Origin: Methylococcaceae bacterium UBA2778
Lineage (GTDB): Bacteria; Pseudomonadota; Gammaproteobacteria; Methylococcales; UBA2778
Assembly (NCBI GenBank): GCA_002352385.1
Contig: DEII01000121.1
Location: 19,959-83,958, forward strand
Reading direction: 5' to 3'
Length of the DNA stretch: 64,000 nt
Below the pieces are notes generated by a model. That model saw nothing but the letters and a program-made list of their open reading frames with translations, ran no database searches and was not told the origin of the DNA. Of this stretch, positions 19,525-54,848 are shown one piece after another. Both the position numbers and the translations under genes were made by a program. How positions within the stretch are numbered: the first letter of the stretch is position 1; every line of letters starts with the position of its first letter.

Positions 19525-19818
19525 ATGATGGAAATCACCTTTTCACAACGCATTGCCGCACCCGACGGTGTGCTTATCCAGATGCTCGACGGCGAGGCCG
19601 TCCTGCTCAATCTGGACACCGAATCCTATTTCGGTCTGGACGAGGTAGGCGCTCGCATGTGGACGCTGCTGACCGAATCGGACTCGATCCAAACGGCCTA
19701 TGAGGCCCTGCTGAAGGAGTACGATGTTACGCCGGAGCAGCTGCGCGCTGATCTGATCGGTCTGATCGATCGCTTGGCGGAGCAAGGGTTGATCAAGCTC
19801 GATGCGACGATGGAATGA
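19525..19818 (+). CDS. PqqD-family RiPP recognition protein (lasso peptide B1)
   Basis: 97 aa from the ATG at 19525: MMEITFSQRIAAPDGVLIQMLDGEAVLLNLDTESYFGLDEVGARMWTLL... is a typical PqqD/RRE fold sequence. Overlaps the downstream B2 gene by 17 nt. Confidence 0.85.
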   Translation: MMEITFSQRIAAPDGVLIQMLDGEAVLLNLDTESYFGLDEVGARMWTLLTESDSIQTAYEALLKEYDVTPEQLRADLIGLIDRLAEQGLIKLDATME

Positions 19819-20272
19819 ATGCCGGGCTCTGTCTGGCCGGGAAAAACGCTTTCTGTTCGCCGCCTTCATCGTGCAGTCGCTGATCATTCCGGCGCTGCGA
19901 ATCTGGGGTTTTCGGCGGGTCCACGCCTTTCTGCACCGAACGGCGCCAAAGCCACACGCTCTGCCGTCGACGCAGGCAGGGGACGAGCATCCAGGCATCG
20001 AAGAGCTCAGAAACCTCGGGCACTTGGTCAACGCAGCGGCCAATAATAGCCCCATCCGCACCGCCTGCCTCACGCGCTCCCTGGCGCTCTGGTGGTTGCT
20101 GCGGTGCCGGGGGATCGCCTGCGATCTGCGCATCGGTGTCAGTAATGACTCGGGCGAGTTCTCGGCCCATGCGTGGGTGGAATACGAGGGGGCGGTGATC
20201 AATGACAGTCCCGGGTCGATTGGGCGGTTTGCGGCTTTCGATGGGGGCTTGTCCCCTTTAGAGCGGTTATGA
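19802..20272 (+). CDS. Lasso peptide leader protease (B2, transglutaminase-like Cys protease)
   Basis: 156 aa with CLTRSLALWWLL (catalytic Cys region) and FSAHAWVEYEGAVIND (His region), as in lasso B-protein C-terminal domains. ATGA overlap with the cyclase gene. Confidence 0.85.
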   Translation: MRRWNECRALSGREKRFLFAAFIVQSLIIPALRIWGFRRVHAFLHRTAPKPHALPSTQAGDEHPGIEELRNLGHLVNAAANNSPIRTACLTRSLALWWLLRCRGIACDLRIGVSNDSGEFSAHAWVEYEGAVINDSPGSIGRFAAFDGGLSPLERL

Positions 20273-22167
20273 GCGGCATCTTTGGCATCGTCAATTTCGA
20301 CGGTCGTCCGGTTCAAGAGCAAGACCTGTCTCCCATGCTGGCCACTCTGAAACGCCGGGGACCGGACGGGTCTGGGATATGGATCAAAGGTCCGGTGGGG
20401 CTGGGTCATGCCTTGATGGTAACGACGCCTGAGTCTTGTGGAGATAAGCAGCCGGTTGTCGATCGAACAGGCATGTTTTCCTTGACGTTTGCTGGGCGAA
20501 TAGATAACAGGACAGAGTTATCAGCCGCGCTTGAAATTAATAGCCCGCCCCTGAATGACCTTTCCGATGCGGAGTTGGTAATGGAATGCTATAAGCGGTG
20601 GGGAATCGGTTGTTTGCAGCATATCGTAGGCGATTTCGCATTGGCGCTTTGGGATGGCCGAAATCAGCAAATATTCTGCGCCCGGGATGTGCTCGGCATC
20701 AAGCCATTTTTTTATTATTTTGGCAAGGGTACTTTTCGTTTTGCTTCTGAAATTCGACCGGTGATCGAACATGCGCCGATTCAAGTGAGACCAAACGAAA
20801 AGGTCGTTGCAGAGTATCTCGCCGACACACTTCGAACAGTTGACGAGACGCTTTATGTAGATATTTATCGCTTGCCTCCAGGCTGCTATCTCATTGTCAC
20901 CCGCACCGGTCTGAGGATTACCCGGTATTGGGAAGTCACTGGCCTGAAGCCCATCCGCTATCGGACAGATGACGAATACACGGAGCATTTTTTGACGCTG
21001 TTTCGAGAGGCTGTGAATGCCCGTTTACGCACTGTTGGAGGAGTTGCTTCTGAATTAAGTGGTGGTATTGACTCTTCATCAGTCGTTGCCATGATCTCGC
21101 AGCTCCAACACGAGGGAAACATTCCACGCAGTGATTTTAGCACACAATCCCTGATATTCCCTGGCCTAGAGTGTGACGAAAGCGACTACATCCGCGCCGT
21201 TATCGACCGCTGCGGTATAAAGAAACATCGGGCTTGGAGGCCGACACCTTATGACTATGAATGGCATCGAAACCAGGTGAAACGGTATTGGGATATTCCT
21301 GACTATCCAAATGGGGCGATGGCTCATCAGTTTCGCGAGATTCTTGGCAAAGAGGGCGTCAATGTTGTGCTGACAGGGCTAGGCGGCGATGAATGGTTTG
21401 CCGGAAGTCGATACGATTACGCAGACCTCATTCGACAAGGCCGACTCCTGTCGCTTTTCTCCAAGCTGCGGGCCGAGAAGGACTCTTTGGGCTCTGGGAC
21501 GCGCGATGTTCTGCGATATGGTATACGCCCATTGATCCCGGAGCGATTTATCGCGTTGCTTCGGTCACTCAAGGCAAATTCATACGAATCGCATTATCCA
21601 TGGATTTCGAGAACGCTGTTTGATCAAAGCGCATTGAGCGAACGTTTACGGCAACCACCGAACTGGCGGATGCTTCCAACGTACGCACAGACAGAGATGT
21701 TTAGCCGCGTAACGAGCATAATCCAAGTACATGCCATCGAAATGGAGGAACGTTCTGCAGCAGAGCTGGGGCTTGAATTGAGGCATCCGTTTCAGGATCG
21801 CCGCATAGCAGAGTTTGGACTTGCCCTACCTGAAGAGCAGAGAAGGCGTAATGGCATAGGAAAATATGTGATTAGAAAGGCCATGCAGCCTTTGCTTCCA
21901 CGCCTGGTTCTTTCTCGAACTTCCAAGGCCGAATTTTCGGCAGTGTTTATGGAGGCTATTGAAGCACAAGGGAGTCGCGCCTTTGAGAATATGGCCATCG
22001 CTGAAGCGGGCTGGATAAACCGCGACGAAGCCATCAGGATGTATAAGAGGGTGAAAACCGAATATGCTTCTGGCGACCGCGATTGTTGCCAGTACCTCTG
22101 GCCTTTATGGCGTATTTATGGTATGAATATTTGGTATCAGGAAGTGCTTTTAGACTCTCGAGTCTAA
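20269..22167 (+). CDS. Lasso peptide macrolactam synthetase (C protein, asparagine-synthetase B-like)
   Basis: 632 aa. The N-terminus MSGIFGIVNFDGRPV fits a Ntn glutaminase-like domain, and the central SELSGGIDSSSVV PP-loop ATP pyrophosphatase motif fits asparagine synthetase homologues. Confidence 0.9.
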   Translation: MSGIFGIVNFDGRPVQEQDLSPMLATLKRRGPDGSGIWIKGPVGLGHALMVTTPESCGDKQPVVDRTGMFSLTFAGRIDNRTELSAALEINSPPLNDLSDAELVMECYKRWGIGCLQHIVGDFALALWDGRNQQIFCARDVLGIKPFFYYFGKGTFRFASEIRPVIEHAPIQVRPNEKVVAEYLADTLRTVDETLYVDIYRLPPGCYLIVTRTGLRITRYWEVTGLKPIRYRTDDEYTEHFLTLFREAVNARLRTVGGVASELSGGIDSSSVVAMISQLQHEGNIPRSDFSTQSLIFPGLECDESDYIRAVIDRCGIKKHRAWRPTPYDYEWHRNQVKRYWDIPDYPNGAMAHQFREILGKEGVNVVLTGLGGDEWFAGSRYDYADLIRQGRLLSLFSKLRAEKDSLGSGTRDVLRYGIRPLIPERFIALLRSLKANSYESHYPWISRTLFDQSALSERLRQPPNWRMLPTYAQTEMFSRVTSIIQVHAIEMEERSAAELGLELRHPFQDRRIAEFGLALPEEQRRRNGIGKYVIRKAMQPLLPRLVLSRTSKAEFSAVFMEAIEAQGSRAFENMAIAEAGWINRDEAIRMYKRVKTEYASGDRDCCQYLWPLWRIYGMNIWYQEVLLDSRV

Positions 22168-22459
22168 AACTGATGAAGGATGCCAATGATTTAAATACAG
22201 TTTTTTGTATAGGAGTGCCGTTACGTTGGAATGAACATTCTTCAATCGGCACGATTAGGATGCATTTAGGCGTAGCCCGCATTCCGTGCTTACTCTATAA
22301 ATCGATGCGCTAGCATGCTTTTTAGTACAGGAATAAACAATGACTTGTGCGCTCAACGTGTTCAATTTTCGTCTTAGAAAAAGCAATCGATAAGTTCGAG
22401 CGCGGAAGCCCCTCCCCCCGGATGCACGTCAATTCTAAATCCACAAGAGGAGTCTCAAA

Positions 22460-22633
22460 ATGCAAAATTCAAATGAACACCCAGAAAAGCGACATATGGA
22501 GATTGAGCCTCGAAAGAAGCGGAAGTACCGGGGGCCTCTCATACAGAAATATGGTAATATTTCTGAACTGACCCAGATGCCGGGCGGCAGTGGAGTGCCA
22601 GAAGGCGCCAGTGGGAAAAACCATCCCCTGTAA
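22460..22633 (+). CDS. Lasso peptide precursor (A peptide), 57 aa
   Basis: Below the track's apparent length cutoff (no ORF shorter than 60 aa is listed). AAGAGGAG Shine-Dalgarno 7 nt upstream of the ATG. Translation: MQNSNEHPEKRHMEIEPRKKRKYRGPLIQKYGNISELTQMPGGSGVPEGASGKNHPL. Y23/P26/I28/G32/T38 fit the leader motif YxxPxLx3Gx5Tx, placing Thr at -2. The only acidic core residue, E48, is core position 9. Confidence 0.7.
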   Translation: MQNSNEHPEKRHMEIEPRKKRKYRGPLIQKYGNISELTQMPGGSGVPEGASGKNHPL

Positions 22634-22922
22634 TATACATTGGTACAAGACGTCAATGGCCGCTTCCAGAAATATGCCCCTAGGATAAATTGCTCGTTCC
22701 CGGTAGTTTGGTGGGGACGGGCATAGTCCGCGTTCCGCGCTTCTCAATAAATCGATAACTTCGTGCTCCTCCTGAATGACGACATCGAGCACAAATACAC
22801 AAACGGTGGAGTCATTTTTCTCCAGGGAAAAACTGATCAGTCGGGTAAAGCGCGGATGGCTGGTTGTGCCCTATGGGATTCACTTTGGAAAGGTCTAACT
22901 CAGAGGTTTTGAACCAATCGAA

Positions 22923-23906
22923 TTGAGAGAGCGGCCATTGACATTCTATCGGTTATGTGACTTTTTAATCGAGAGCAACGTCATACTCTCCGGCCTTTTG
23001 GCCGCAGGCAAGGCGGATACACGACAAACCTTCCGGTTGCGCCCGGTGCGACCGTCATTTCTAGTCATTGATAACTGGTTACGCCATCAGAAGCTTCCTG
23101 ATGGCACTGAATGGCTGTCGGTTGCTCGCTTGAAGGGCGAATATCTCCTGCGCTTTACCAACTTGGCCGACTTCACGGTCTCGGCAGATGGTTGGCAGAT
23201 TAACTGCTACCCCCACGGGAACATCGTCAACGAGACCGCTAGCCACCTGTTGCTGGACCAGGTGATTCCGGCAGTGTTAGCCCATCAAGGCGAATTGGTT
23301 CTGCATGCCTCCGGCGTGGTCAGCGATTACGGCGCCATCGCCTTCTTGGGCGAGTCAGGATCTGGAAAGTCGACCCTGTGCGCCGGCTTCAATCGGGCCG
23401 GGTTTCCGCAATTGAGCGATGACTTTCTTCTCCTGCGCGCGAGCAAGGATGGCTTCGTGGCTGTCCCTAGTTATCCGGGGCTGCGTCTGTGGCCAGACAG
23501 CAGAACCGCTCTGAAATGGGAAGCGGCCGATACGACGCCCGTTGCCCATTACACGACCAAGGAGCGCTTGGATACCTCCTCCCACGGTCTTCCATTCTGC
23601 TCGGTCCCCGTGCCAATCACGACACTGTTTGTACTCACTTCTCCTGACGAAACGATGAAAACAGACCAAGTGAGTATAGAACCGCTCACACACCAAGACG
23701 CCTTTATGGCATTGCTGAAATACTCTTTTCGTCTGGATATTAGTGATCGGGAACGCAATAAGAAAGCATTTCGGGACATTGCCGAGACTGTATCCAAACT
23801 GAAGCTCTTTCGGTTATCGTATCCCCGCAAAATGGCAATGTTACCGCAAGTGCGAACGGCGATTTTGGAGCACCTTGCAACTGAGGAGAGAGCGATGGAA
23901 AAATAG
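22923..23906 (+). CDS. HPr kinase/phosphorylase-like protein (candidate lasso peptide tailoring kinase)
   Basis: 327 aa with LHASGVVSDYGAIAFLGESGSGKSTLCAGF, a P-loop in the context typical of the HprK C-terminal domain. Lies directly downstream of the precursor. TTG start as given in the track. Confidence 0.75.
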   Translation: MRERPLTFYRLCDFLIESNVILSGLLAAGKADTRQTFRLRPVRPSFLVIDNWLRHQKLPDGTEWLSVARLKGEYLLRFTNLADFTVSADGWQINCYPHGNIVNETASHLLLDQVIPAVLAHQGELVLHASGVVSDYGAIAFLGESGSGKSTLCAGFNRAGFPQLSDDFLLLRASKDGFVAVPSYPGLRLWPDSRTALKWEAADTTPVAHYTTKERLDTSSHGLPFCSVPVPITTLFVLTSPDETMKTDQVSIEPLTHQDAFMALLKYSFRLDISDRERNKKAFRDIAETVSKLKLFRLSYPRKMAMLPQVRTAILEHLATEERAMEK

Positions 23907-24061
23907 AGGGGGATCAGCGATACTTTTTGATGTCACGCGGTCTGAGGTCTTCCTTCCACATCCCCAAGCTCCTTCGCCAATCCTGCTACGTTGCCTTGTC
24001 CTGTCCCCCGTGTCTCCGGCGGTATATCCCGCTCACCGTCCTCGAACAAGGCTTTCACCCG

Positions 24062-24352
24062 TCACGCACCCCACTCCCAAAACCCTTGCCTCCCCGTCGC
24101 CGGCACCGGCTCCACCAGCCGGGCAGCACAGACCACGACGCCGCGCGGCAGGGTATCGAAGCTGCAGCCGGCGCGCGCCAGGGCCTCTTCGATCTTCGGT
24201 CTGCCCCGGTAGCGTTTGATATCCCTGCTGGTCTTGGCGGCGTGGATCGCCAGCGGTCCGCGGTAGTGGGTGGACCATGAGCGAGTCTCGAACCGTTTGG
24301 CGCCGATGGCGACCAGGGTGGCCCATGGCTGCCAGAGTGTGATTGCTTTCAT
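24062..24352 (-). CDS. ASCH-domain protein
   Basis: The internal ATG at 24352 gives MKAITLWQPWATLVAIGAKRFETRSWSTHYRGPLAIHAAK..., the usual N-terminus of small ASCH proteins. The track ORF extends to 24451. Confidence 0.65.
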   Translation of the reverse strand: MKAITLWQPWATLVAIGAKRFETRSWSTHYRGPLAIHAAKTSRDIKRYRGRPKIEEALARAGCSFDTLPRGVVVCAARLVEPVPATGRQGFWEWGA

Positions 24353-25026
24353 CGGAAGAGCTGAAAAAAGGGATGGTTTGGACCAAGCGAAAGAGATTTC
24401 TCTTTTCGTTGGGAGCTCGAGCACTCTAGCGGATAGAATGGCCTCGGTCAATGCGGCAGCGGGCGATCCGACAACGGTTGGGCTCTCTACCGCTTTCCGC
24501 AGCTTTTCTATTGATAATCGAATCTTTATGTTCGATTATGAGGCCGTGAACGGTGCGGAATTCATCAGGAGGGTCAAGCTCATTGGCAACCGCAACCGCA
24601 ACCGCAACGGCGTCGATGTCTGTCTTGTCGGCTGTCATGGAAAAGGCAGCTGTGCAGTGACGGATGATAATGTCCGAGAGTTCGAAGAGCGGAGCGAGGG
24701 TTGCATTCGAGGAATCTTTGATCAATGTATGGGTTTGATTTACACTGCAACTACTGCAGGAGGCGTGGTCTGTCCTCGTTTTCATGTGTTCCTTTTTTGG
24801 TCCTATGTTATGGCTGTTTTGTTCGGTTCGATTGGCTGTCGCTGCTGCATGTGTCAGTTGATTGATAGGCGGTCGATTGAGCGGGCAAAGAACTCTTCGG
24901 AAATAGTGCCAAGAAAATACACCGTATCATGGCGGAACCGCTTCGCGTTCGGCCCGACGCCCAGGCCTGCTAACTTAATGGCATTGAGGTGAGCGGGCAA
25001 AGGCGTGCCGGTTCCCCCGGTCTATC

Positions 25027-25180
25027 TCTCTTTTTCTGGCGCCGAGGCGCTGCCTCGATGCTTTCGTCTTGGCGGTTCCGCCGCCGAAATCGGGGAGCAA
25101 AGACCAACAAGCGGTCAATGCCGACAGGGCAGCGGCTCCAGACGTGGTGATGCGGCGGAGCTGCTGCGGCTAAGTGCCGA
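25027..25180 (+). repeat. About 150-nt dispersed intergenic element, copy B
   Basis: CTCTTTTTCTGGCGCCGAGGCGCTGCC...GGGGAGCAAAGACCAACAAGCGGTCAATGCCGACAGGGCAGCGGCTCCAGACGTGGTGATGCGGCGGAGCTGCTGCGGCTAAGTGCCGAAAAGG. Homologous to copy A, with an internal insertion of about 30 nt. Confidence 0.7.
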
Positions 25181-25202
25181 AAAGGAACTCAGCCATTTTG
25201 AT

Positions 25203-25236
25203 CCCCTCATCCCAGCCTTCTCCCGGACGGAGAAGG
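25203..25236 (-). repeat. REP-like unit CTCCGGGAGAAGG..GGGATGAGGG, copy 1
   Basis: The reverse complement of CCCCTCATCCCAGCCTTCTCCCGGACGGAGAAGG matches the units at 32235 and 62548. Confidence 0.55.
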
Positions 25237-25298
25237 AGCGCTCCATCCTGATTCGACAGCATTGATTTGGAGGGTGGGCGCGCGCGGGAGCTGCGGAC

Positions 25299-25396
25299 TC
25301 TGGAATCGGGAAAAAGGAATCACGGATCAGATAGGGATGAGTCAATTTTTTTCATTCCCACTGTCTGATCCCTGATTCCCGATCCCTGTTTCCTGG
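25299..25396. repeat. GGGATCAG-type palindromic repeat, copy 4
   Basis: TCTGGAATCGGGAAAAAGGAATCACGGATCAGATAGGGA, an AT-rich loop, then TCCCACTGTCTGATCCCTGATTCCCGATCCCTGTTTCC. The arms are imperfect reverse complements. Confidence 0.7.
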
Positions 25397-25466
25397 TACT
25401 GGATCACATGAAACTGTTGCACAACAAAACGCTCGCTGCTCGGCAGCTGCAATTCCAAAAAGCACA

Positions 25467-35237: not shown

Positions 35238-36800
35238 ATGCCAACATCATTGAATTATCCAGGCGTCTATGTCGAGGAAATTCCCAGTGGTGTCCGTACG
35301 ATCACCGGGGTTGCCACTTCCATCGCTGCTGTCGTCGGTAGAGCGAAACGCGGGCCAATCGATAAGGCCACGGTCATAAACAGTTATGCCGACTATGAAC
35401 GCCTTTTTGGTGGGCTCGATCTCACTAGCAAGATGAGCTTTGCCGTCCGGGATTTTTATCTAAATGGTGGTCAGCAGACGGTAATCGTGCGAATTTACCA
35501 TGCGGACCCTCCTGCGGAACCGGGTGGAGACGCTCCTCCATCGTTGGCAAGCCTGACTGCCGGAAATGTCGAACTCGAGGCAGCCAGTCCAGGCGCTTGG
35601 GGCAACAGGCTTCGTGTCATTGTCGATCATGACGACGCAGCGACCGCGGACGTCGCTGAGCGCCAGGAGGTGGAAGTCGGAGACCTTTTCAATCTCACCG
35701 TAGAAGAAAACGTCGAAACAGGACGGCGAGAGCGTTTCCTGAACGTGACAGTCATAGCAGGACCGCGCCAGCTGGATAAAGTCCTCGAAAATGAGTCCGA
35801 ATTGGCTCGCCTGGCTGAAGGCGCCGACTTGCCGGAAACGAGACCGTCGGATAGTACCTATACGGTGACAGAAGCCAATCGGGCCTCCGATGGTCAGCCG
35901 CTCGCCGTTAACGATTATATCGGAGACAGAGTTCGAAAAAGAGGCCTTTACGCACTAGAGCAAATTGACCTGTTCAATCTTCTTTGTTTGCCCTCGGAAG
36001 GGGAAACATCGGATTATCCCGCCGGTTTGCTTGCATCTGCGGCCAGCTATTGCGAAGACCGCCGCGCAATGCTTCTCGTGGACTCACCCAGCAGTTGGAG
36101 CAATAAGGATAGAGCGAGGAGTGGCATGGCTACGGGTGTAGGAACCAATAGCAAGAATGCCGCGATATTTTTCCCCCGCCTGAAGCAGCCCAATCCGCTT
36201 CGCGACAATCAAATCGAGGAATTCGTGCCGTGCGGCGCCGTGGCGGGCGTGTTTGCACGCACCGATGCGCAGCGCGGGGTGTGGAAGGCGCCCGCGGGTA
36301 TCGAAGCAACCTTGAAAGGTGTTCCGGAACTCAGCGTTAACCTGACAGATCCGGAAAACGGGGAACTCAATCCACTAGGCCTGAACTGTTTGCGCACATT
36401 TCCCGTCATTGGCCGGGTCGTATGGGGCGCGAGAACACTGAAGGGGGCAGATGTGTTGGCCCATGAATGGAAGTACACCCCGGTAAGACGGTTAGCGCTT
36501 TTCATAGAAGAAAGCCTGTATCGCGGTACCCAGTGGGTCGTTTTCGAGCCAAACGACGAGCCCCTATGGGCTCAAATCCGACTCAATGTCGGTGCCTTCA
36601 TGAATAATCTCTTTCGCCAAGGCGCCTTTCAGGGCGTGTCACCCCGGGATGCATATTTTGTCAAGTGCGACAAGGAGAGCACGACACAGAACGATATCAA
36701 CCTCGGCATCGTGAATATCGTTGTCGGCTTTGCACCGCTTAAGCCGGCCGAGTTCGTGGTTATCAAGATTCAACAGATCGCTGGCCAAGTCCAGGTTTGA
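35238..36800 (+). CDS. Contractile tail sheath protein (CIS sheath)
   Basis: 520 aa. N-terminus MPTSLNYPGVYVEEIPSGVRTITGVATSIAAVVG and C-terminus ...AYFVKCDKESTTQNDINLGIVNIVVGFAPLKPAEFVVIKI are the conserved ends of phage-tail sheath family proteins. GGAGGA Shine-Dalgarno upstream. Confidence 0.92.
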   Translation: MPTSLNYPGVYVEEIPSGVRTITGVATSIAAVVGRAKRGPIDKATVINSYADYERLFGGLDLTSKMSFAVRDFYLNGGQQTVIVRIYHADPPAEPGGDAPPSLASLTAGNVELEAASPGAWGNRLRVIVDHDDAATADVAERQEVEVGDLFNLTVEENVETGRRERFLNVTVIAGPRQLDKVLENESELARLAEGADLPETRPSDSTYTVTEANRASDGQPLAVNDYIGDRVRKRGLYALEQIDLFNLLCLPSEGETSDYPAGLLASAASYCEDRRAMLLVDSPSSWSNKDRARSGMATGVGTNSKNAAIFFPRLKQPNPLRDNQIEEFVPCGAVAGVFARTDAQRGVWKAPAGIEATLKGVPELSVNLTDPENGELNPLGLNCLRTFPVIGRVVWGARTLKGADVLAHEWKYTPVRRLALFIEESLYRGTQWVVFEPNDEPLWAQIRLNVGAFMNNLFRQGAFQGVSPRDAYFVKCDKESTTQNDINLGIVNIVVGFAPLKPAEFVVIKIQQIAGQVQV

Positions 36801-48595: not shown

Positions 48596-48958
48596 ATGAA
48601 CATTGACGTCCCTTTTTGCTTCGACAGCCGCGGCCGCACCGCCTCGGACGACGATCATGATCATATCCGCGACATGATCGAACAGTTTCTGTTCACCAAT
48701 CCCGGTGAGCGCGTCAATCGTCCCGAATTCGGCAGCGGCTTGCTGGGCATGGTATTCGAGCCCAACAGTCCCGAGTATGGCGCGGTTTTGCAGCAAGGGA
48801 TCGAAGCGGGCCTGCAGCGTTGGTTGGGCGATCTGATCGAGGTCCGTTCCCTGCAGGTTATCAGCGAAGAGGCGGTGCTGCGGGTGGTTTTGCAGTACGC
48901 GGTACGGCCCAGCGGCGAGGCACGCACGGAGACCTTTCAGCGGAGCATGGCGCCATGA
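48596..48958 (+). CDS. Baseplate wedge protein gp25/GPW-like
   Basis: 120 aa. IRDMIEQFLFTNPGERVNRPEFGSGL matches the GPW/gp25 lysozyme-like fold motif. Confidence 0.88.
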   Translation: MNIDVPFCFDSRGRTASDDDHDHIRDMIEQFLFTNPGERVNRPEFGSGLLGMVFEPNSPEYGAVLQQGIEAGLQRWLGDLIEVRSLQVISEEAVLRVVLQYAVRPSGEARTETFQRSMAP

Positions 48959-51891
48959 ACGAATCGAACTTGATCTGCCTCGACGAGCGGCGGCGCCATC
49001 TGGTCCGCGAAAAAGGGCTGAACGGGCTGGATTATCTGGAAGTCAGCGACGACCAATTGAAGTTGACGGTGTATTTCCTGGCCAAGGCGCCGGAAGATCT
49101 GCAAAAAGAAAATGTTGTCATCAGAGGCGGGCGCCGCATCCGCGGCATTCGGGTGATCGATCTGAGATTGTGTATTCAGGCCGATCCCGCCCGCGATGAC
49201 TGCGTGATCCTCACCGTCGATCGCTTCGGCGACTTCTCTGACTACACCCTTTGTCTCGTGGGTCTGGATGAACAGGGCCGGCCATCGCCTCATGCACTAC
49301 CTGGATTCGATCCCCGCTACGCCTGCCTGGATTTCAGCTTCAAGGCCGGGTGCCCCAGCGATTTGGATTGTAAACCGATCGATGTCTGTCCGTCGCCCGC
49401 GAATGTTGAGCCGGAAATCGACTACCTGGCAAAAGACTACGCCAGTTTTCGTCAGCTGATGCTCGATCGTCTCGCCTTGACCATGCCTGAGTGGCGCGAA
49501 ACGCATGTGCCCGACATCGGGGTTGCGCTGGTGGAGCTGCTGGCCTATACCGGTGACCAGCTCAGCTATTATCAAGACGCCGTCGCCACCGAGGCTTATC
49601 TGGATACGGCGCGGCAACGCATTTCCGTGCGGCGCCATGCGCGGTTGGTGGACTATCACATGCATGAGGGCTGCAATGCACGGGCCTTCGTGTGCGTGGC
49701 AACAGATGCCAGGGTGGACCTCGAACCCGCCGAGCTATTCTTCATCACGGGCAAGGGGCTGGACTTCAACAAGAGATTATTGACGGCGGAGGCGTTGCGC
49801 GGGATTCCGGGCAGCCGCTATGAAGTGTTCGAACCCGCGAATGTCTCGCCGCGAAGTGTCGAGTTCCGGCTAAGCGATCTGAAGTACCCAGGATGTCCGG
49901 CGGTCAAGCTGCGGGACCGGGAAGACCCGATATCCGAATACATCTACGGCACTTTTTCATCGGAAACACAGGGCATGCTGGCGGAGTATACCGGTGACGG
50001 TGCGCGACGACCCGGTGACACTTTGCAAGAAGCGCTGGTGGCCGAGTTCAACCGATTGTTGTACAGGCCAGATCTTTACCATCGGTCCCGTTTCGCGGCA
50101 ATCGAGCTTGGCGACGATATCCGGACTCTCCTCGACTCGAACCCACAGGGCGATGAACTGGCGCGCCTGAACCGGGTTTTGTTGCAGCGAGCGTACCCGC
50201 AGGAACTCGCGACTGTCCGGCAGCCGGATGATCCGATATGTCTGGATCCGGATCACAATGAAATCCGCTTTTATACATGGGGCGATCAGGAGTGCTGCTT
50301 GGGGCGCGGCACGATGAGCGCGGTCCTGGCGGATGCCTGGCTCCCGATGGGCAGGGCGGGTGAAGAAACGACCGATATCGAAGAGTGCCGGCGGCTGCGG
50401 GTCCTGGGCCAACTGCAGCCCGGAGACGTACTGATCTTCGAAGAGATGAAGGGGCCCAAGACAGGCAATCCGGCCGACGCCGATCCGGAACATCGGCACG
50501 CGGTACGCCTGACGCACGTTTTATTCGATATCGACCCGCTCACCCACCAGCCTATCGTACATATCGACTGGGCGGAAGATGACGCGTTACCGTTTCCCTT
50601 GTGCCTGTCCGCCATCGGGCCTGCGCCGGAATGCCCGCTGCTCGAGAACATCAGTCTTGTTCGCGGTAACGTTATTTTGGTCGATCACGGGCGCAGCATC
50701 GGCCCGGAAGACCTCGGCACGGTTGCCGCCGAACCGACCGAACCGCGTTGCGAAGGAGAAGGACAAGCGGCGGAAGTAGAGATCCTTCCTGAGGGCTTTA
50801 CAGCGCAATTGGAGCACGCACCTTTGACGTTTGGCGAGCCTGTCGCAGCGGAGATGCCGGCCTCCGCCATGATGGACCAGTATCCCCGCCAAGCCCTGCC
50901 TCAAATTGCGCTTGCCGCCAAGCGTACGTTGGGAGACAGCGAAATTGTACGGACATGGAGTCCGACCGATGATCTGTTGAACAGTCGGGCCAATGAACGT
51001 CGCTTTGTCGTCGAGCCGGACGGAGAAGGTCGCGGACATCTGCGCTTCGGTGACGGCGAACTCGGACGTCTGCCCGAAGCGGGCACTATATTCCTCGCAA
51101 CCTACCGGACCGGCAATGGCCCTGCCGGCAACGTCGGCGCTGAATCCATCTCCCATCTTGTCCAGCGTTCAACGACACTCAGTGGAGTGCAGCTTACTCC
51201 GCGCAACCCACTGCCCGCCAGGGGCGGGATCGCGCCGGAACCGATGGCCGATGTCAAGCTGTTTGCGCCGCACGCATTTCGCAGCGAAATACAACGCGCC
51301 ATCACCGCACAGGACTATGCACACATTGTCATGCGCGATTTCAAGGCAGAAGCCCAACGAGCCGCGGCCAAGCTTCGCTGGACCGGCAGCTGGGTCGAAG
51401 TGCTTGTCGCGGTCGATCCAAAAGGCGAGGTGAACGCAGACCCGGAACTGTTGAACGAGATCGCAAAACATCTCTACCGCTATCGTCGCATGGGACACGA
51501 CGTTGTCGTTGCACCGGCCCGGTATGTTGCCTTGGCAGTGGAATTGACCGTTTGCGTCCTGCCGAATTATCTGCGTGGCCAGGTCAAGGCGGCCGTACTG
51601 GAGGTCTTGAGCAACCGCATGCGTCCGGATGGAAAGCTTGGCTTTTTCCATCCCGACCGTCTGAGCTTCGGAGAAGGCGTTGCGGCCAGTTCTCTGGTTG
51701 CCGCTGTCCAAAATCTCCCGGGCGTGGAGAGCGTTTTCGTCGACAAATTGAAGCGTCAATTCGAAGATTCGCAGGATCTCCCAGAGGATGGAATTTTACG
51801 TTTTGGACCGCTGGAGGTTGCCCGATTGGACAACGATCCCAACCGGCCTGAAAACGGCGTTTTGCAACTGAAAATGGGGGGTGGAAGATGA
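48955..51891 (+). CDS. Baseplate J-like (gp6-like) wedge protein
   Basis: The ATG at 48955 overlaps the gp25 stop (ATGA), giving 978 aa. It has the N-terminal MNESNLICLDERRRHLVREKGLNGLDYLEV pattern, a central DYASFRQLMLDRL...ELLAYTGDQLSYYQD segment and a C-terminal baseplate J region. The track ORF starts upstream, inside gp25. Confidence 0.85.
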   Translation: MNESNLICLDERRRHLVREKGLNGLDYLEVSDDQLKLTVYFLAKAPEDLQKENVVIRGGRRIRGIRVIDLRLCIQADPARDDCVILTVDRFGDFSDYTLCLVGLDEQGRPSPHALPGFDPRYACLDFSFKAGCPSDLDCKPIDVCPSPANVEPEIDYLAKDYASFRQLMLDRLALTMPEWRETHVPDIGVALVELLAYTGDQLSYYQDAVATEAYLDTARQRISVRRHARLVDYHMHEGCNARAFVCVATDARVDLEPAELFFITGKGLDFNKRLLTAEALRGIPGSRYEVFEPANVSPRSVEFRLSDLKYPGCPAVKLRDREDPISEYIYGTFSSETQGMLAEYTGDGARRPGDTLQEALVAEFNRLLYRPDLYHRSRFAAIELGDDIRTLLDSNPQGDELARLNRVLLQRAYPQELATVRQPDDPICLDPDHNEIRFYTWGDQECCLGRGTMSAVLADAWLPMGRAGEETTDIEECRRLRVLGQLQPGDVLIFEEMKGPKTGNPADADPEHRHAVRLTHVLFDIDPLTHQPIVHIDWAEDDALPFPLCLSAIGPAPECPLLENISLVRGNVILVDHGRSIGPEDLGTVAAEPTEPRCEGEGQAAEVEILPEGFTAQLEHAPLTFGEPVAAEMPASAMMDQYPRQALPQIALAAKRTLGDSEIVRTWSPTDDLLNSRANERRFVVEPDGEGRGHLRFGDGELGRLPEAGTIFLATYRTGNGPAGNVGAESISHLVQRSTTLSGVQLTPRNPLPARGGIAPEPMADVKLFAPHAFRSEIQRAITAQDYAHIVMRDFKAEAQRAAAKLRWTGSWVEVLVAVDPKGEVNADPELLNEIAKHLYRYRRMGHDVVVAPARYVALAVELTVCVLPNYLRGQVKAAVLEVLSNRMRPDGKLGFFHPDRLSFGEGVAASSLVAAVQNLPGVESVFVDKLKRQFEDSQDLPEDGILRFGPLEVARLDNDPNRPENGVLQLKMGGGR

Positions 51892-54848
51892 AACCGGAGC
51901 ATTGTGGCTGTTGTGAAGGCGTGCAGCGTCGGACCCCGCAGGCTTTAGCCAACCGTCCGGGGCTCTCGTCCCTGGCGTATCGCATCGGCACACACAGCAG
52001 CTTTCTCGAGACCATGAAAGCCCGCCTTTCCGATTCGTATGTGGACGTTTGGATCAAGGAAGACGGCGAGGAGGCGCGCTATCTTCAAGCCATGATGAGC
52101 CGTCATCCCGAGGTGGCGGTCGAGCTGCTGCAAGAGCAAGAGACAAAGAAAAAGTATCGCATCTACCGGCTGCACGCGCTGACCACCCGGGATCCCAGCG
52201 ATCCGAGCATCGCTTTGCTCGACGCTTGGGCAACGGTGGCGGATGTGCTTACCTTTTACCAGGAGCGTATCGGCAACGAAGGTTATCTGCTGACCGCAAC
52301 CGAGCGTCGTTCCATCGTGCAGCTCGCAAATCTGGTTGGATACACGTTGAAACCCGGTGTCGCCTCGAGCGCCTTTCTCGCCTTCACCCTGGATAAAGGC
52401 TACAAGACGTCGATCCCCGCAGGCACCCGGGGCCAGAGCATGCCCAACCCAAGCGGATCGCCTCAATCCTTCGAGACATCGGAACCGTTGCAGGCACGCG
52501 AGGAGTGGAGCCGGATCCAGCCACGCCGGACCATGCCGCAGTTTATTACGGATAAAACGCACACGCTTTACCTAAAGGGTGTCGCGACAGGGTTGAAGCC
52601 GAACGATCCGCTGTTGGTCATCGACCGTAGCGGCGAGCAATTCTTTCGTCGGGTGCTGAGTATTGAGCCCGATCCCGAGTCGGATCGCAGCAAAGTGGTG
52701 TTAACCTTATTCGCAGAGGCTGAAATACCCTCTGCGGAACCAAAAAAGGTGTCGCTGACAGAGGCCCTTACCGACCTGATGGGGCCTCTATCCAAATCGC
52801 CGTCGCTGCCGCCCCGCAGCGCGCGGACGCTCAAACGTGCGCCAAAGCAGGTCTACGGCCCATCCGTGGATACCAACCTGAAGCTGTTGAGTGCACTGAA
52901 AAAAGCGCCCGATGTCTACGCGGCGATCGAAGGCGTGACGGCTCAAACCGGACCTGCTCGGGTGTATGCATTTCGCACGACGGCCGCCTTGTTTGGCAAC
53001 AATGTTCCGAAGCAGATTACCTATGCATTGAGAACGAACCAGCCGTTGCCGCCAGAGAACTGGCAGGAATGGCCGATTGCTGATGACGAGAGGTCTAATG
53101 TGGCCTATCTGGACGGTGCCCACGACAAGATCCAACCGGGCAGTTATATCGCAATCAGAACAGTTGACTCAGATGCGCAGGTGTTCGGAAGCGTTACTGT
53201 GCATACCCTTCCTCGCAGCCAGTACGGCATCAGCGCCAAGACCACCAGGATCACATTGCCGGAAGGGGAGACATGGAGGGAGGATCCACCTGATCCGCTC
53301 GAAGATCGTAGGGATTTTTTCACTGAACAAATCCGCGGGACCGTCGTCTACGCCGAAAGCGAACCGCTCGAGCTGGCCGAGGAACCTATCGTAGAGGATA
53401 TCGGCGGGGCAACGATCGAGCTGGACGGTCTATATGAAGGACTCGAAGCGGGGCGCTGGTTGATCGTCTCGGGCGAACGCAGCGATATTGCGGCGAGCCG
53501 CAGCACTGCGAACGGTGACGAAGACAATTCAGAACTCAAGGCCAGCGGCGTCAACGCCAGTGAGCGGGTGATGGTTTCCGGTGTCTCTCACCAACTGCGT
53601 AAGGCTAAGGCGGACCAAAAACAAATCCTTCCGGGCGAAAGCTTTCACACAGTCCTTACGTTGGCAAATGAACTAGCCTACACCTATAAGCGCGACAGCG
53701 TCGTTATCCATGGCAACGTCGTTAAAGCCACGCAAGGTGAAACGCGTCGGGAAATCCTTGGAAACGGCGACGGAGCACGCGCGCGGCAGACGTTTACGCT
53801 GGCTCAGTTGCCATTGACGCATTTGGCGGCGCCCACGCCCGAGGGCGCGCAAAGTACCTTGAAAGTCCGGATCAACGATGTACGCTGGCACGAGTCCGAC
53901 AATCTGTTCACACTTGACGCCAATGCCCGCGGCTACATCACACGCACCGATGACGAGGGCAAAACGAACATCATTTTCGGCGATGGCATCCATGGGGCGC
54001 GCCTCCCCAGCGGCAGTGAGAACATAAGCGCCATGTACCGTTCCGGCATCGGCAAATCAGGCAACGTCGGTGCCAAGCGCATCAGCCTGCTGGCCACCAA
54101 GCCTTTGGGCGTAAAAGCAGTCATCAACCCTCTGCCCGCCACCGGCGGGGCTGATGCCGAAGGCCGCGACCAGGCTCGCGAGAACATACCGCTGGCACTC
54201 ATGGCGCTGGACCGCATCGTTTCTGTGCAAGACTACGCCGATTTCGCACGCAGCTACGCAGGGATTGCAAAAGCGAGCGCCGCCTGCCTTCCCGCTGCTG
54301 ATCGACAGGTGGTTCATGTCACGGTGGCCGGCGTGGATGACATTCCCATCGACAGGGACTCCGAATTGTATCTCAATTTATACCAGGCACTACGCAGATA
54401 TGGTGATCCCCATCAACCGATTCGCCTGGCAACCCGGGAGCTCATGCTGCTGGTGATTTTTGCCGGCGTGCGGGTTCTGCCCGACTATCAATGGGACAAG
54501 GTCGAGCCGCGGGTACGGCAGGCGCTGCTGGATGCTTTTGCCTTCGAGAAGCGGGCGCTCGGCCAGGAGGTGCTGCTGAGCGAAGTCATCGGTGTCATTC
54601 AGGCAGTATCGGGGGTGGCCTATGTGGATGTGGATATTCTCCACGCGGTGTCCGAGGACGTTACACCGGAACATCTGGAAAAACTCGCGGACACTTTAAA
54701 GAGCCAACAGCCAGCCAAACGCATTCCAGTCGGTACGGCCCACATTGCGACAGATGATCACCGCGTGATAAAGCCTGCGCGGCTGGCTTATCTCGATCGA
54801 GAGTTACAGAACGATACCCTTGTTCTCTGGGAGCTGACTCATGAATGA
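51888..54848 (+). CDS. Putative baseplate assembly protein (gp7-like large wedge subunit)
   Basis: 986 aa. The N-terminal CGCCEG...RPGLSSLAYRIGTHSSFLETMKARLS and DPSIALLDAWATVADVLTFYQERI are typical of the large baseplate protein that follows baseplate J in eCIS loci. Confidence 0.8.
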   Translation: MKPEHCGCCEGVQRRTPQALANRPGLSSLAYRIGTHSSFLETMKARLSDSYVDVWIKEDGEEARYLQAMMSRHPEVAVELLQEQETKKKYRIYRLHALTTRDPSDPSIALLDAWATVADVLTFYQERIGNEGYLLTATERRSIVQLANLVGYTLKPGVASSAFLAFTLDKGYKTSIPAGTRGQSMPNPSGSPQSFETSEPLQAREEWSRIQPRRTMPQFITDKTHTLYLKGVATGLKPNDPLLVIDRSGEQFFRRVLSIEPDPESDRSKVVLTLFAEAEIPSAEPKKVSLTEALTDLMGPLSKSPSLPPRSARTLKRAPKQVYGPSVDTNLKLLSALKKAPDVYAAIEGVTAQTGPARVYAFRTTAALFGNNVPKQITYALRTNQPLPPENWQEWPIADDERSNVAYLDGAHDKIQPGSYIAIRTVDSDAQVFGSVTVHTLPRSQYGISAKTTRITLPEGETWREDPPDPLEDRRDFFTEQIRGTVVYAESEPLELAEEPIVEDIGGATIELDGLYEGLEAGRWLIVSGERSDIAASRSTANGDEDNSELKASGVNASERVMVSGVSHQLRKAKADQKQILPGESFHTVLTLANELAYTYKRDSVVIHGNVVKATQGETRREILGNGDGARARQTFTLAQLPLTHLAAPTPEGAQSTLKVRINDVRWHESDNLFTLDANARGYITRTDDEGKTNIIFGDGIHGARLPSGSENISAMYRSGIGKSGNVGAKRISLLATKPLGVKAVINPLPATGGADAEGRDQARENIPLALMALDRIVSVQDYADFARSYAGIAKASAACLPAADRQVVHVTVAGVDDIPIDRDSELYLNLYQALRRYGDPHQPIRLATRELMLLVIFAGVRVLPDYQWDKVEPRVRQALLDAFAFEKRALGQEVLLSEVIGVIQAVSGVAYVDVDILHAVSEDVTPEHLEKLADTLKSQQPAKRIPVGTAHIATDDHRVIKPARLAYLDRELQNDTLVLWELTHE

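Follow-up and report, generated by a model that had tools for sequence, protein, structure and literature searches.

Predicted lasso peptide cluster and its maturation enzymes

A stretch of 64,000 nucleotides (nt) from Methylococcaceae bacterium UBA2778 (contig DEII01000121.1), called the window in the following and numbered from its first letter, contains between positions 19525 and 23906 a cluster of five plus-strand genes in the order B1-B2-C-A-K, which are predicted to direct the synthesis of a lasso peptide (Table 1). A previous reading of the letters alone (the sequence-only reading) had proposed five co-directional open reading frames (ORFs) here, with overlaps between B1 and B2 and between B2 and C; in the ORF list all five are present on the plus strand, and the overlaps amount to 17 nt and 4 nt (ATGA), respectively. 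B1, B2, and C are translationally coupled. The cluster occupies 4.4 kb and accessory tailoring genes are absent from it. The ORF of K reaches upstream to a TTG at 22923 (327 amino acids), but the TTG at 22938 is more likely to be the start because it is used in public gene calls and fits the N-terminal consensus MxxYxxCxL of the family.

The products of B1, B2, and C were compared with protein profiles and with the proteins encoded by the bsf cluster (BsfA/B1/B2/C/D/K/N) of Bradymonas sediminis FA350, the closest characterized system (PMC10368454). B1 matches Pfam PqqD (3e-18), NCBIfam lasso_PqqD_Bac (5e-15), TbiB1 (5v1u, 1.5e-11), a solved lasso recognition element for peptides that are made on ribosomes and modified after translation (RiPPs), and BsfB1 (28% identity, E 1e-10). 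B2 matches NF033537 lasso_biosyn_B2 (2.9e-26) with 92 bits, which exceeds the cutoff of 33, and Pfam Transglut_core3 (1.3e-25); its Cys-His-Asp triad consists of Cys89, His123, and Asp135, with a spacing of 12 between His and Asp, and the Cys and His residues align with those of BsfB2, to which part of B2 is 36% identical. C is matched by the lasso cyclase profile NF033535 (1.8e-142, 476 bits) and by Asn_synthase (9.5e-44) plus GATase_7, and carries the PP-loop SGGIDSS at residues 264-270; its N-terminus is MSG and it therefore is without the glutaminase nucleophile Cys2. The family assignments of all five genes lie well above chance level. When metagenomes were scanned with the cyclase, the best identity over the full length was at most 39% and no close relative of the whole cluster was found.

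Precursor A and signals for its expression

The 57-residue product of gene A is the predicted precursor. It matches NF033528 lasso_cyano (8e-5), agrees in position and motif with the precursors of 61 related loci, and is 48% identical (E 7e-11) to P0174, a precursor from another cluster; two relatives (P0127 and P0137) are named "lasso RiPP family leader peptide-containing protein" by NCBI. Its leader motif, Y23-x2-P26-x-I28-x3-G32-x5-T38-Q39, reads Y23-R-G-P26-L-I28-Q-K-Y-G32-N-I-S-E-L-T38-Q39 and fits YxxPxLx3Gx5Tx except for an Ile in place of Leu. After the leader follow M40-P41, then G42-G43-S44-G45-V46-P47-E48 and the nine-residue tail GASGKNHPL, the C-terminus being NHPL and thus Leu. 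The candidate ring acid Glu48 is encoded at 22601-22603 and the candidate phosphate acceptor Ser44 at 22589-22591. The precursor had been described as hidden; however, gene calls for it already exist in NCBI, JGI, and ENA data, and it is preceded by a predicted ribosome-binding site, AAGAGGAG, that is strong. A search with the precursor alone retrieved only the query itself, and its exact sequence forms a singleton in a collection of 5.8 billion protein clusters.

Only two exact copies of the 10-mer ATAAATCGAT are present in the whole 64 kb, one in the AT-rich spacer between C and A and the other in the spacer between A and K, and partial repeats (AATCGATAAGTTCGAGC and AATCGATAACTTCGTGC) adjoin them; the 10-mer may represent a promoter or operator element shared by A and K. 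No canonical terminator was found 3' of A. The RNA of the A-K spacer is moderately structured (z = -2.4 against shuffles), and a stable stem-loop without a following U-tract is predicted about 58 nt past the stop codon of A, which may be a processing or stability element.

Kinase K

K is covered by TIGR04352 HprK_rel_A (1e-12) over its P-loop region only. No Pfam model, Hpr_kinase_C included, reached its threshold with K, and its relative P0041 scored 25.4 bits against Hpr_kinase_C, under the cutoff of 33.3; relatives of K carry PF27840 ScmC. In a phmmer search of PDB sequences no homologue of K was found. An AlphaFold model obtained from an alignment of 33 relatives had a predicted local distance difference test value of 92.9 and a predicted template modeling (TM) score of 0.91, and Foldseek matched this model to PEPCK (2.7e-7) and to C-terminal domains of HprK/P (1.4e-4, target-normalized TM 0.55-0.63), both matches falling on the P-loop kinase domain. 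K is a distant member of the HprK/P superfamily and not an HprK/P orthologue.

In order to compare K with BsfK, the bsfK gene as printed (PMC10368454) was translated. The two proteins are 26% identical (E 1e-11) and both contain a P-x-LRLW motif and the pattern H-x14-G-x2-G-x-G-K-S-x15-D-D. The eight catalytic residues of K (H128, G143, G146, G148, K149, S150, D166, and D167) are invariant in the 33 relatives and are found in BsfK, from H148 to D187, at identical spacing. BsfK places a phosphate on Ser3 of the core GTSGNEVD... before the leader has been removed (Duan 2023, PMC10368454), BsfB1 strongly stimulates this phosphorylation, and mutation of H148, G163, K169, S170, D186, or D187 lowers the activity of BsfK (PMC10368454). 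Ser44 of the window precursor would be core position 3 if the core begins at G42 and position 5 if it begins with Met. By analogy with BsfK, these data support a role of K as a BsfK-type kinase for a Ser in the ring-forming segment, acting with the help of B1. The HPr-kinase-like character claimed before for K is borne out by the HprK_rel_A match and by the HprK/PEPCK fold, and can be narrowed to the BsfK type.

Like the bsf cluster, the window cluster has split B1 and B2 proteins, a cyclase, an HPr-kinase-like K, a leader with YxxPx(L/I), and the core motif G-x-S-G (GTSGNEVD in BsfA, GGSGVPE in the window). The two clusters differ in gene order, and D and N are present in bsf and absent from the window. 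Position -2 is Ile in bsf and Thr in the window, where an extra Met-Pro precedes GGSG, and the ring acid is Asp8 in BsfA whereas the candidate in the window is a Glu, the seventh residue from the first Gly.

Related clusters and missing accessory genes

At least 809 homologues of K, almost all without a name, were present in the protein collection, and relatives were found in 198 species genomes from Acidobacteriota, Nitrospirota, Chloroflexota, Methylomirabilota, Myxococcota, and several proteobacterial lineages, among others. About 80 loci (L002-L081) drawn from these genomes were used to study synteny. Their dominant layout is B1-B2-C-A-(PRMT-like methyltransferase)-K-(NTP_transf_5 nucleotidyltransferase)-(ABC exporter). 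The order B1-B2-C-A-K given by the sequence-only reading is present, and the placement of the precursor after the cyclase is the norm of the family and no peculiarity, because the dominant layout has it. These loci share with the window the gene order and the protein families (K 35-46% identical, C with E down to 1e-167) and a precursor leader of the form K-x-Y-x2-P-x-L-x-(E/x)-Y-G-x5-T-Q. Most of them also carry a methyltransferase (54/81 loci), a nucleotidyltransferase, and an ABC exporter, whereas the window has none of the three. Where these tailoring genes occur, the PRMT-like S-adenosylmethionine methyltransferase lies between precursor and kinase and the NTP_transf_5 gene after the kinase (for example, L070 4027-5172 and L045 10978-12162). 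The closest relatives of K, from the metagenomic loci L082 and L083, are 57% identical; the L083 cluster has an ABC gene and L082 has a normal precursor starting with Gly. Taken together, profile matches, catalytic residues, and synteny in the related loci back the component identities named before; the B2 triad and the PP-loop of C are both present.

The absence of an ABC exporter, noted before for several kb around the cluster, holds across the 64 kb: tblastn with four ABC exporters of related clusters gave as sole match the PstB gene at 61.6-62.4 kb. With ten representatives as tblastn queries, no remnants of a methyltransferase, nucleotidyltransferase, or exporter were found near the cluster. 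Of the 38 relatives whose 10-kb flanks are completely covered, a transporter is linked in 26 and absent within 10 kb in 12, so that relatives without a linked exporter are in the minority without being rare; only one of the 38 lacks methyltransferase, nucleotidyltransferase, and transporter altogether, as the window does, and the window cluster is therefore unusually reduced. Bradymonadales clusters without D, and some without N, have been reported (PMC10368454). As none of the three genes is linked to the cluster, the product would be exported by an unlinked system or act within the cell.

Junction between leader and core

The position at which the leader would be removed was examined with 65 candidate precursors from the 61 related loci. 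In this family the leader follows the pattern K-x-Y-x2-P-x-L-x2-Y-G-x5-T-x and is directly followed by the core; Thr occupies position -2 in 63 of the 65 precursors and Gln position -1 in 34. Core position 1 is taken by Gly in 44 precursors, by Ser in 12, by Asn and Thr in 3 each, and by Met in none; a precursor of the split-B lasso type would be expected to have a small residue there, directly after Thr-x (Gly, less often Ser, Ala, or Cys), whereas in the window TQ is followed by Met. An acid is found at core position 8 in 43/65, at 9 in 14/65, and at 7 in 2-3/65, with Asp or Glu somewhere within positions 7-9 in 60; a Ser or Thr lies within positions 2-6 in 63, its exact place in residues 1-6 varying. 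While Gly starts and Cys-Leu ends (26/65) are frequent, the window precursor has neither a Gly directly after its Thr-Gln signal nor a Cys-Leu end. The Cys-Leu ends often follow Met-rich tails.

A profile search with related precursors led to a 53-member subgroup with ...ELTA-GGSG(x3)E..., 42 of which have their first acid at position 8. In the window the junction reads ...ELTQ-MP-GGSGVPE..., where relatives have ...ELTA-GGSG...; its GGSG is thus displaced by +2 residues. Judged by these alignments, the Met-Pro at the leader/core junction is an unusual feature, and one that the sequence-only reading had not mentioned. The same layout was found in P0173 (...ELTQ-MTGGSGQRD..., locus L127, order C-A-K), in which the two additional residues are Met-Thr. 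Six precursors and that of L095 read ...TL-PGGS(K/G)xxEGxSGK..., with a displacement of +1 caused by Pro only. Like the window and P0173, these PGGS precursors (P0174 of L124/L125, the P0144 group, and L095) have GGSG shifted off the Thr-x site, and from Pro on the core of P0174 is nearly that of the window: PGGSGAAEGGSGKNHPA is identical to PGGSGVPEGASGKNHPL at 13 of 17 positions. Their clusters are arranged differently, as B2-K-C-A or as D-B1-K-C-A with B2 on the opposite strand, and encode a cyclase only about 30% identical and a kinase 34% identical (partial in length in L124). Because the core is conserved across such divergent enzymes, the comparison argues that the peptide is made and under selection. 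L125 is a second lasso cluster in JGI sample 3300001750, the sample that also contains L001, which carries part of the window sequence.

Three starts of the core can be considered, for which Glu48 would be residue 9, 8, or 7, always with a nine-residue tail. A cut ahead of GGSG, with the core starting at G42, appears to be the best single candidate, though at somewhat under even odds. It would give a Gly1-Glu7 ring of seven residues with Ser3 as in BsfA, would spare the +1 class a Pro N-terminus, and needs a cut four residues past Thr. The ring of seven residues suits small side chains in the tail, and such rings are rare in the family. In the kinase-linked lasso group, hydrophobic residues (Ile, Val) are known to occur at -2 (PMC10368454). 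Somewhat less probable, at about one chance in three, is a start at M40 after a canonical cut behind Thr-Gln, which would form a Met1-Glu9 ring of nine residues with Ser5; this reading keeps Thr(-2) and Tyr(-17) and a ring size found in 14/65 relatives, while a Met1 is unprecedented in the family. A start at P41 seems improbable. Its Pro1-Glu8 ring would have the size preferred by the family in both displaced classes and would begin where conservation begins, but an X-Pro bond would have to be cleaved and a secondary amine acylated. The remainder belongs to a precursor that does not function. The calculated monoisotopic neutral masses of the lasso forms are 1672.799 Da for the Met start, 1541.759 Da for the Pro start, and 1444.706 Da for the Gly start, and phosphorylation would shift each of them by +79.966 Da.

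The 'TL-PGGS' precursors are likely to constitute, together with P0173 and the precursor of the window, a small subgroup with GGSG displaced by one or two residues from the Thr-x signal, which would break one accepted lasso rule. If this is true, B2 might cut 3-4 residues past the conserved Thr, so that Pro occupies position -1 and Leu or Met position -2, or the cyclase might take Met as residue 1 and close a ring of nine residues, or, most exotic, it might take Pro as residue 1 and form a tertiary-amide isopeptide. A Pro1 together with canonical cleavage is exactly what is predicted for the +1 class.

Proposed maturation and alternative explanations

The explanation that accounts best for the data, to which we give a probability of roughly 80%, is that the locus looks functional and represents a minimal cluster for a lasso peptide of class II (without disulfide), probably a phosphorylated one. 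As judged from the sequences, the identities of the five genes and their catalytic residues are as described above; the order of the steps, the dependence on B1, and the site of phosphorylation we infer from bsf of B. sediminis and from what is generally known of lasso biochemistry. B1 would bind the leader motif YRGPLIQKYG....TQ of the precursor, and K, to which B1 presents the substrate, would transfer a phosphate from ATP onto Ser44 of GGSG while the leader is still attached. B2, with Cys89, His123, and Asp135, would then cut off the leader, and C would adenylate Glu48 and couple it to the new N-terminal amine, with the tail GASGKNHPL trapped in the ring. Several points weigh against this explanation. 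The acceptor site is drawn from a homologue of only 26% identity, and heterologous expression of the bsf cluster itself gave no mature lasso peptide (PMC10368454). The score of C (476 bits) lies below the curated NCBIfam cutoff of 525. The junction is non-canonical, a Met start being found in 0/65 relatives and a Gly start placing Met at -2, Pro at -1, and Tyr at -19, and the combined absence of three accessory genes could mean decay.

Such decay is the alternative that deserves most weight, although it is unlikely: the locus would be a remnant that has lost its three accessory genes, has suffered a 6-nt insertion at the cleavage site, and yields no mature peptide. The single precedent among 38 relatives for the triple absence, a junction of the Met-Pro type that is unique apart from P0173, the approximately 1.5 kb of poorly coding DNA after K, and the singleton status of the exact precursor all speak for it. 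However, none of the four enzymes is truncated or lacks its catalytic residues, the precursor retains a strong ribosome-binding site and a perfect leader motif, and several independent datasets yielded assemblies with identical genes. Furthermore, the independent P0173 has the TQ-M-x-GGSG-x2-acid layout in a C-A-K context, and the core matches that of P0174 at 13 of 17 positions in spite of a cyclase identity of 30%.

The kinase leaves room for two other interpretations. K could be a ScmC-like ATPase or scaffold that helps in maturation and leaves no phosphate on the product, or its phosphate could be a transient handle for a missing enzyme such as a nucleotidyltransferase; this has a small chance of being correct, below that of decay. 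The relatives of K match Pfam ScmC, the function of which is putative, and most of them are followed by an NTP_transf_5 gene that is absent from the window; NTP_transf_5 of pseudomycoidin adds sugars to the phosphate (PMC8498205). Yet the full catalytic motif of BsfK, mutation of which lowers activity, is kept in K, and some Bradymonadales clusters likewise manage without N (PMC10368454). Very improbable is a peptide of the paeninodin type, in which K would (poly)phosphorylate a C-terminal Ser as PadeK, ThcoK, and SyanK do. Lasso genes next to an HPr-kinase homologue are indeed seen in Firmicutes and Proteobacteria clusters, and the homologue acts on the linear precursor in paeninodin and pseudomycoidin clusters (Firmicutes) and in those with SyanK-type enzymes (Sphingomonadales) (PMC8498205). 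Those systems target a C-terminal Ser, and their clusters contain an ABC exporter and in many cases also a nucleotidyltransferase or sulfotransferase (PMC8498205), whereas the window precursor ends in Leu, for which reason C-terminal phosphorylation was rejected. A C-terminal Ser occurs in 3/65 family precursors, and K matches BsfK, which acts on Ser3 and is less than 21% identical to PadeK, ThcoK, and SyanK (PMC10368454).

Surroundings of the cluster and other observations

Upstream of the cluster are hemB, aroE, and genes for a D-Ala-D-Ala dipeptidase and a UPF0149/SEC-C protein; downstream are the ORF with an ASCH domain, a thymidine phosphorylase gene, a phosphoribosyl pyrophosphate-synthetase-like gene, and a gene for a hemolysin-III protein. 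By their predicted functions, the genes flanking the cluster are housekeeping genes. The G+C content is 43-52% over about 20.3-23.0 kb and about 58-60% in the flanks, and this dip suggests that the cluster might have been acquired horizontally. Possible island boundaries were searched for: no tRNA gene was found in the window, direct repeats flanking the cluster were not convincing, and no mobility gene was recognizable among the flanking ORFs tested. In the region 3' of K (23907-25466), convincing coding sequence is sparse and consists of unassigned short ORFs and the ASCH ORF. Elsewhere in the window, between 35238 and 58444, lies a gene cluster like those for extracellular contractile injection systems (eCIS/PVC-like). 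Genes of the MscK and PstB types in the window would be in keeping with a proteobacterial host.

Table 1. Coordinates of predicted genes and sequence features in the window.
Feature	Position	Strand	Description
B1	19525-19818	+	97 amino acids; PqqD-type RiPP recognition element
B2	19802-20272	+	156 amino acids; leader peptidase
C	20269-22167	+	632 amino acids; ATP-dependent macrolactam (lasso) cyclase
ATAAATCGAT, copy 1	22297-22306	+	AT-rich C-A spacer, upstream of A
AAGAGGAG	22445-22452	+	predicted ribosome-binding site of A; ends 7 nt 5' of ATG 22460
A	22460-22633	+	57 amino acids; precursor
MPGGSGVPEGASGKNHPL	22577-22630	+	predicted core region; from comparison of junctions with 65 + 64 related precursors
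Stem-loop	22691-22725		predicted, in the A-K spacer
ATAAATCGAT, copy 2	22747-22756	+	A-K spacer, upstream of K
K	22938-23906	+	322 amino acids; HPr-kinase/PEPCK-fold P-loop kinase, predicted precursor Ser kinase
ASCH-domain ORF	24062-24451	-	Pfam 6e-5
eCIS tail sheath	35238-36800
eCIS cluster, Pvc16_N protein	39047-40255
eCIS cluster, AAA ATPase	40252-42318
eCIS_core domain fused to thioredoxin	43826-45529
eCIS cluster, two baseplate proteins	48820-54848		TIGR02243
eCIS cluster, DUF6519 protein	57065-58444

Three of the loci with a kinase of this family, L015 (9117-13465), L030, and L031, have no detectable cyclase. L015 and L030 have B1 and K, L015 having in addition a B2-like ORF, and L031 has K and a B2-like ORF. 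Their precursor-like ORFs keep the leader motif, with cores that are rich in Gly/Arg or Gly/Asn/Met (for example, SGSGRRRGPGRGRGRGRGRGKGKHKGW) and have no acid at positions 7-9. These loci may represent a type of phosphorylated RiPP that is not a lasso peptide; a kinase-dependent LPP family reported in Bacillota (PMC13381572) can serve for comparison.

Significance for the family

HPr-kinase-like tailoring enzymes have been recognized in lasso clusters since 2016, and the variant modified at a ring Ser has been known since 2023. The family to which the cluster of the window belongs is widespread and has been described before, and the finding is in the main a confirmation of known biology. Two features merit the attention of specialists, namely the minimal set of genes and a displaced junction that few other precursors share. 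The mature product of a BsfK-type phosphorylated lasso pathway has not yet been isolated, and the locus offers a compact five-gene example whose small size would make it a convenient construct for a first isolation. From the Met-Pro junction and the PGGS relatives one could learn, as from a natural experiment, how B2 selects the bond that it cuts and which N-terminal residues are tolerated by the cyclase.

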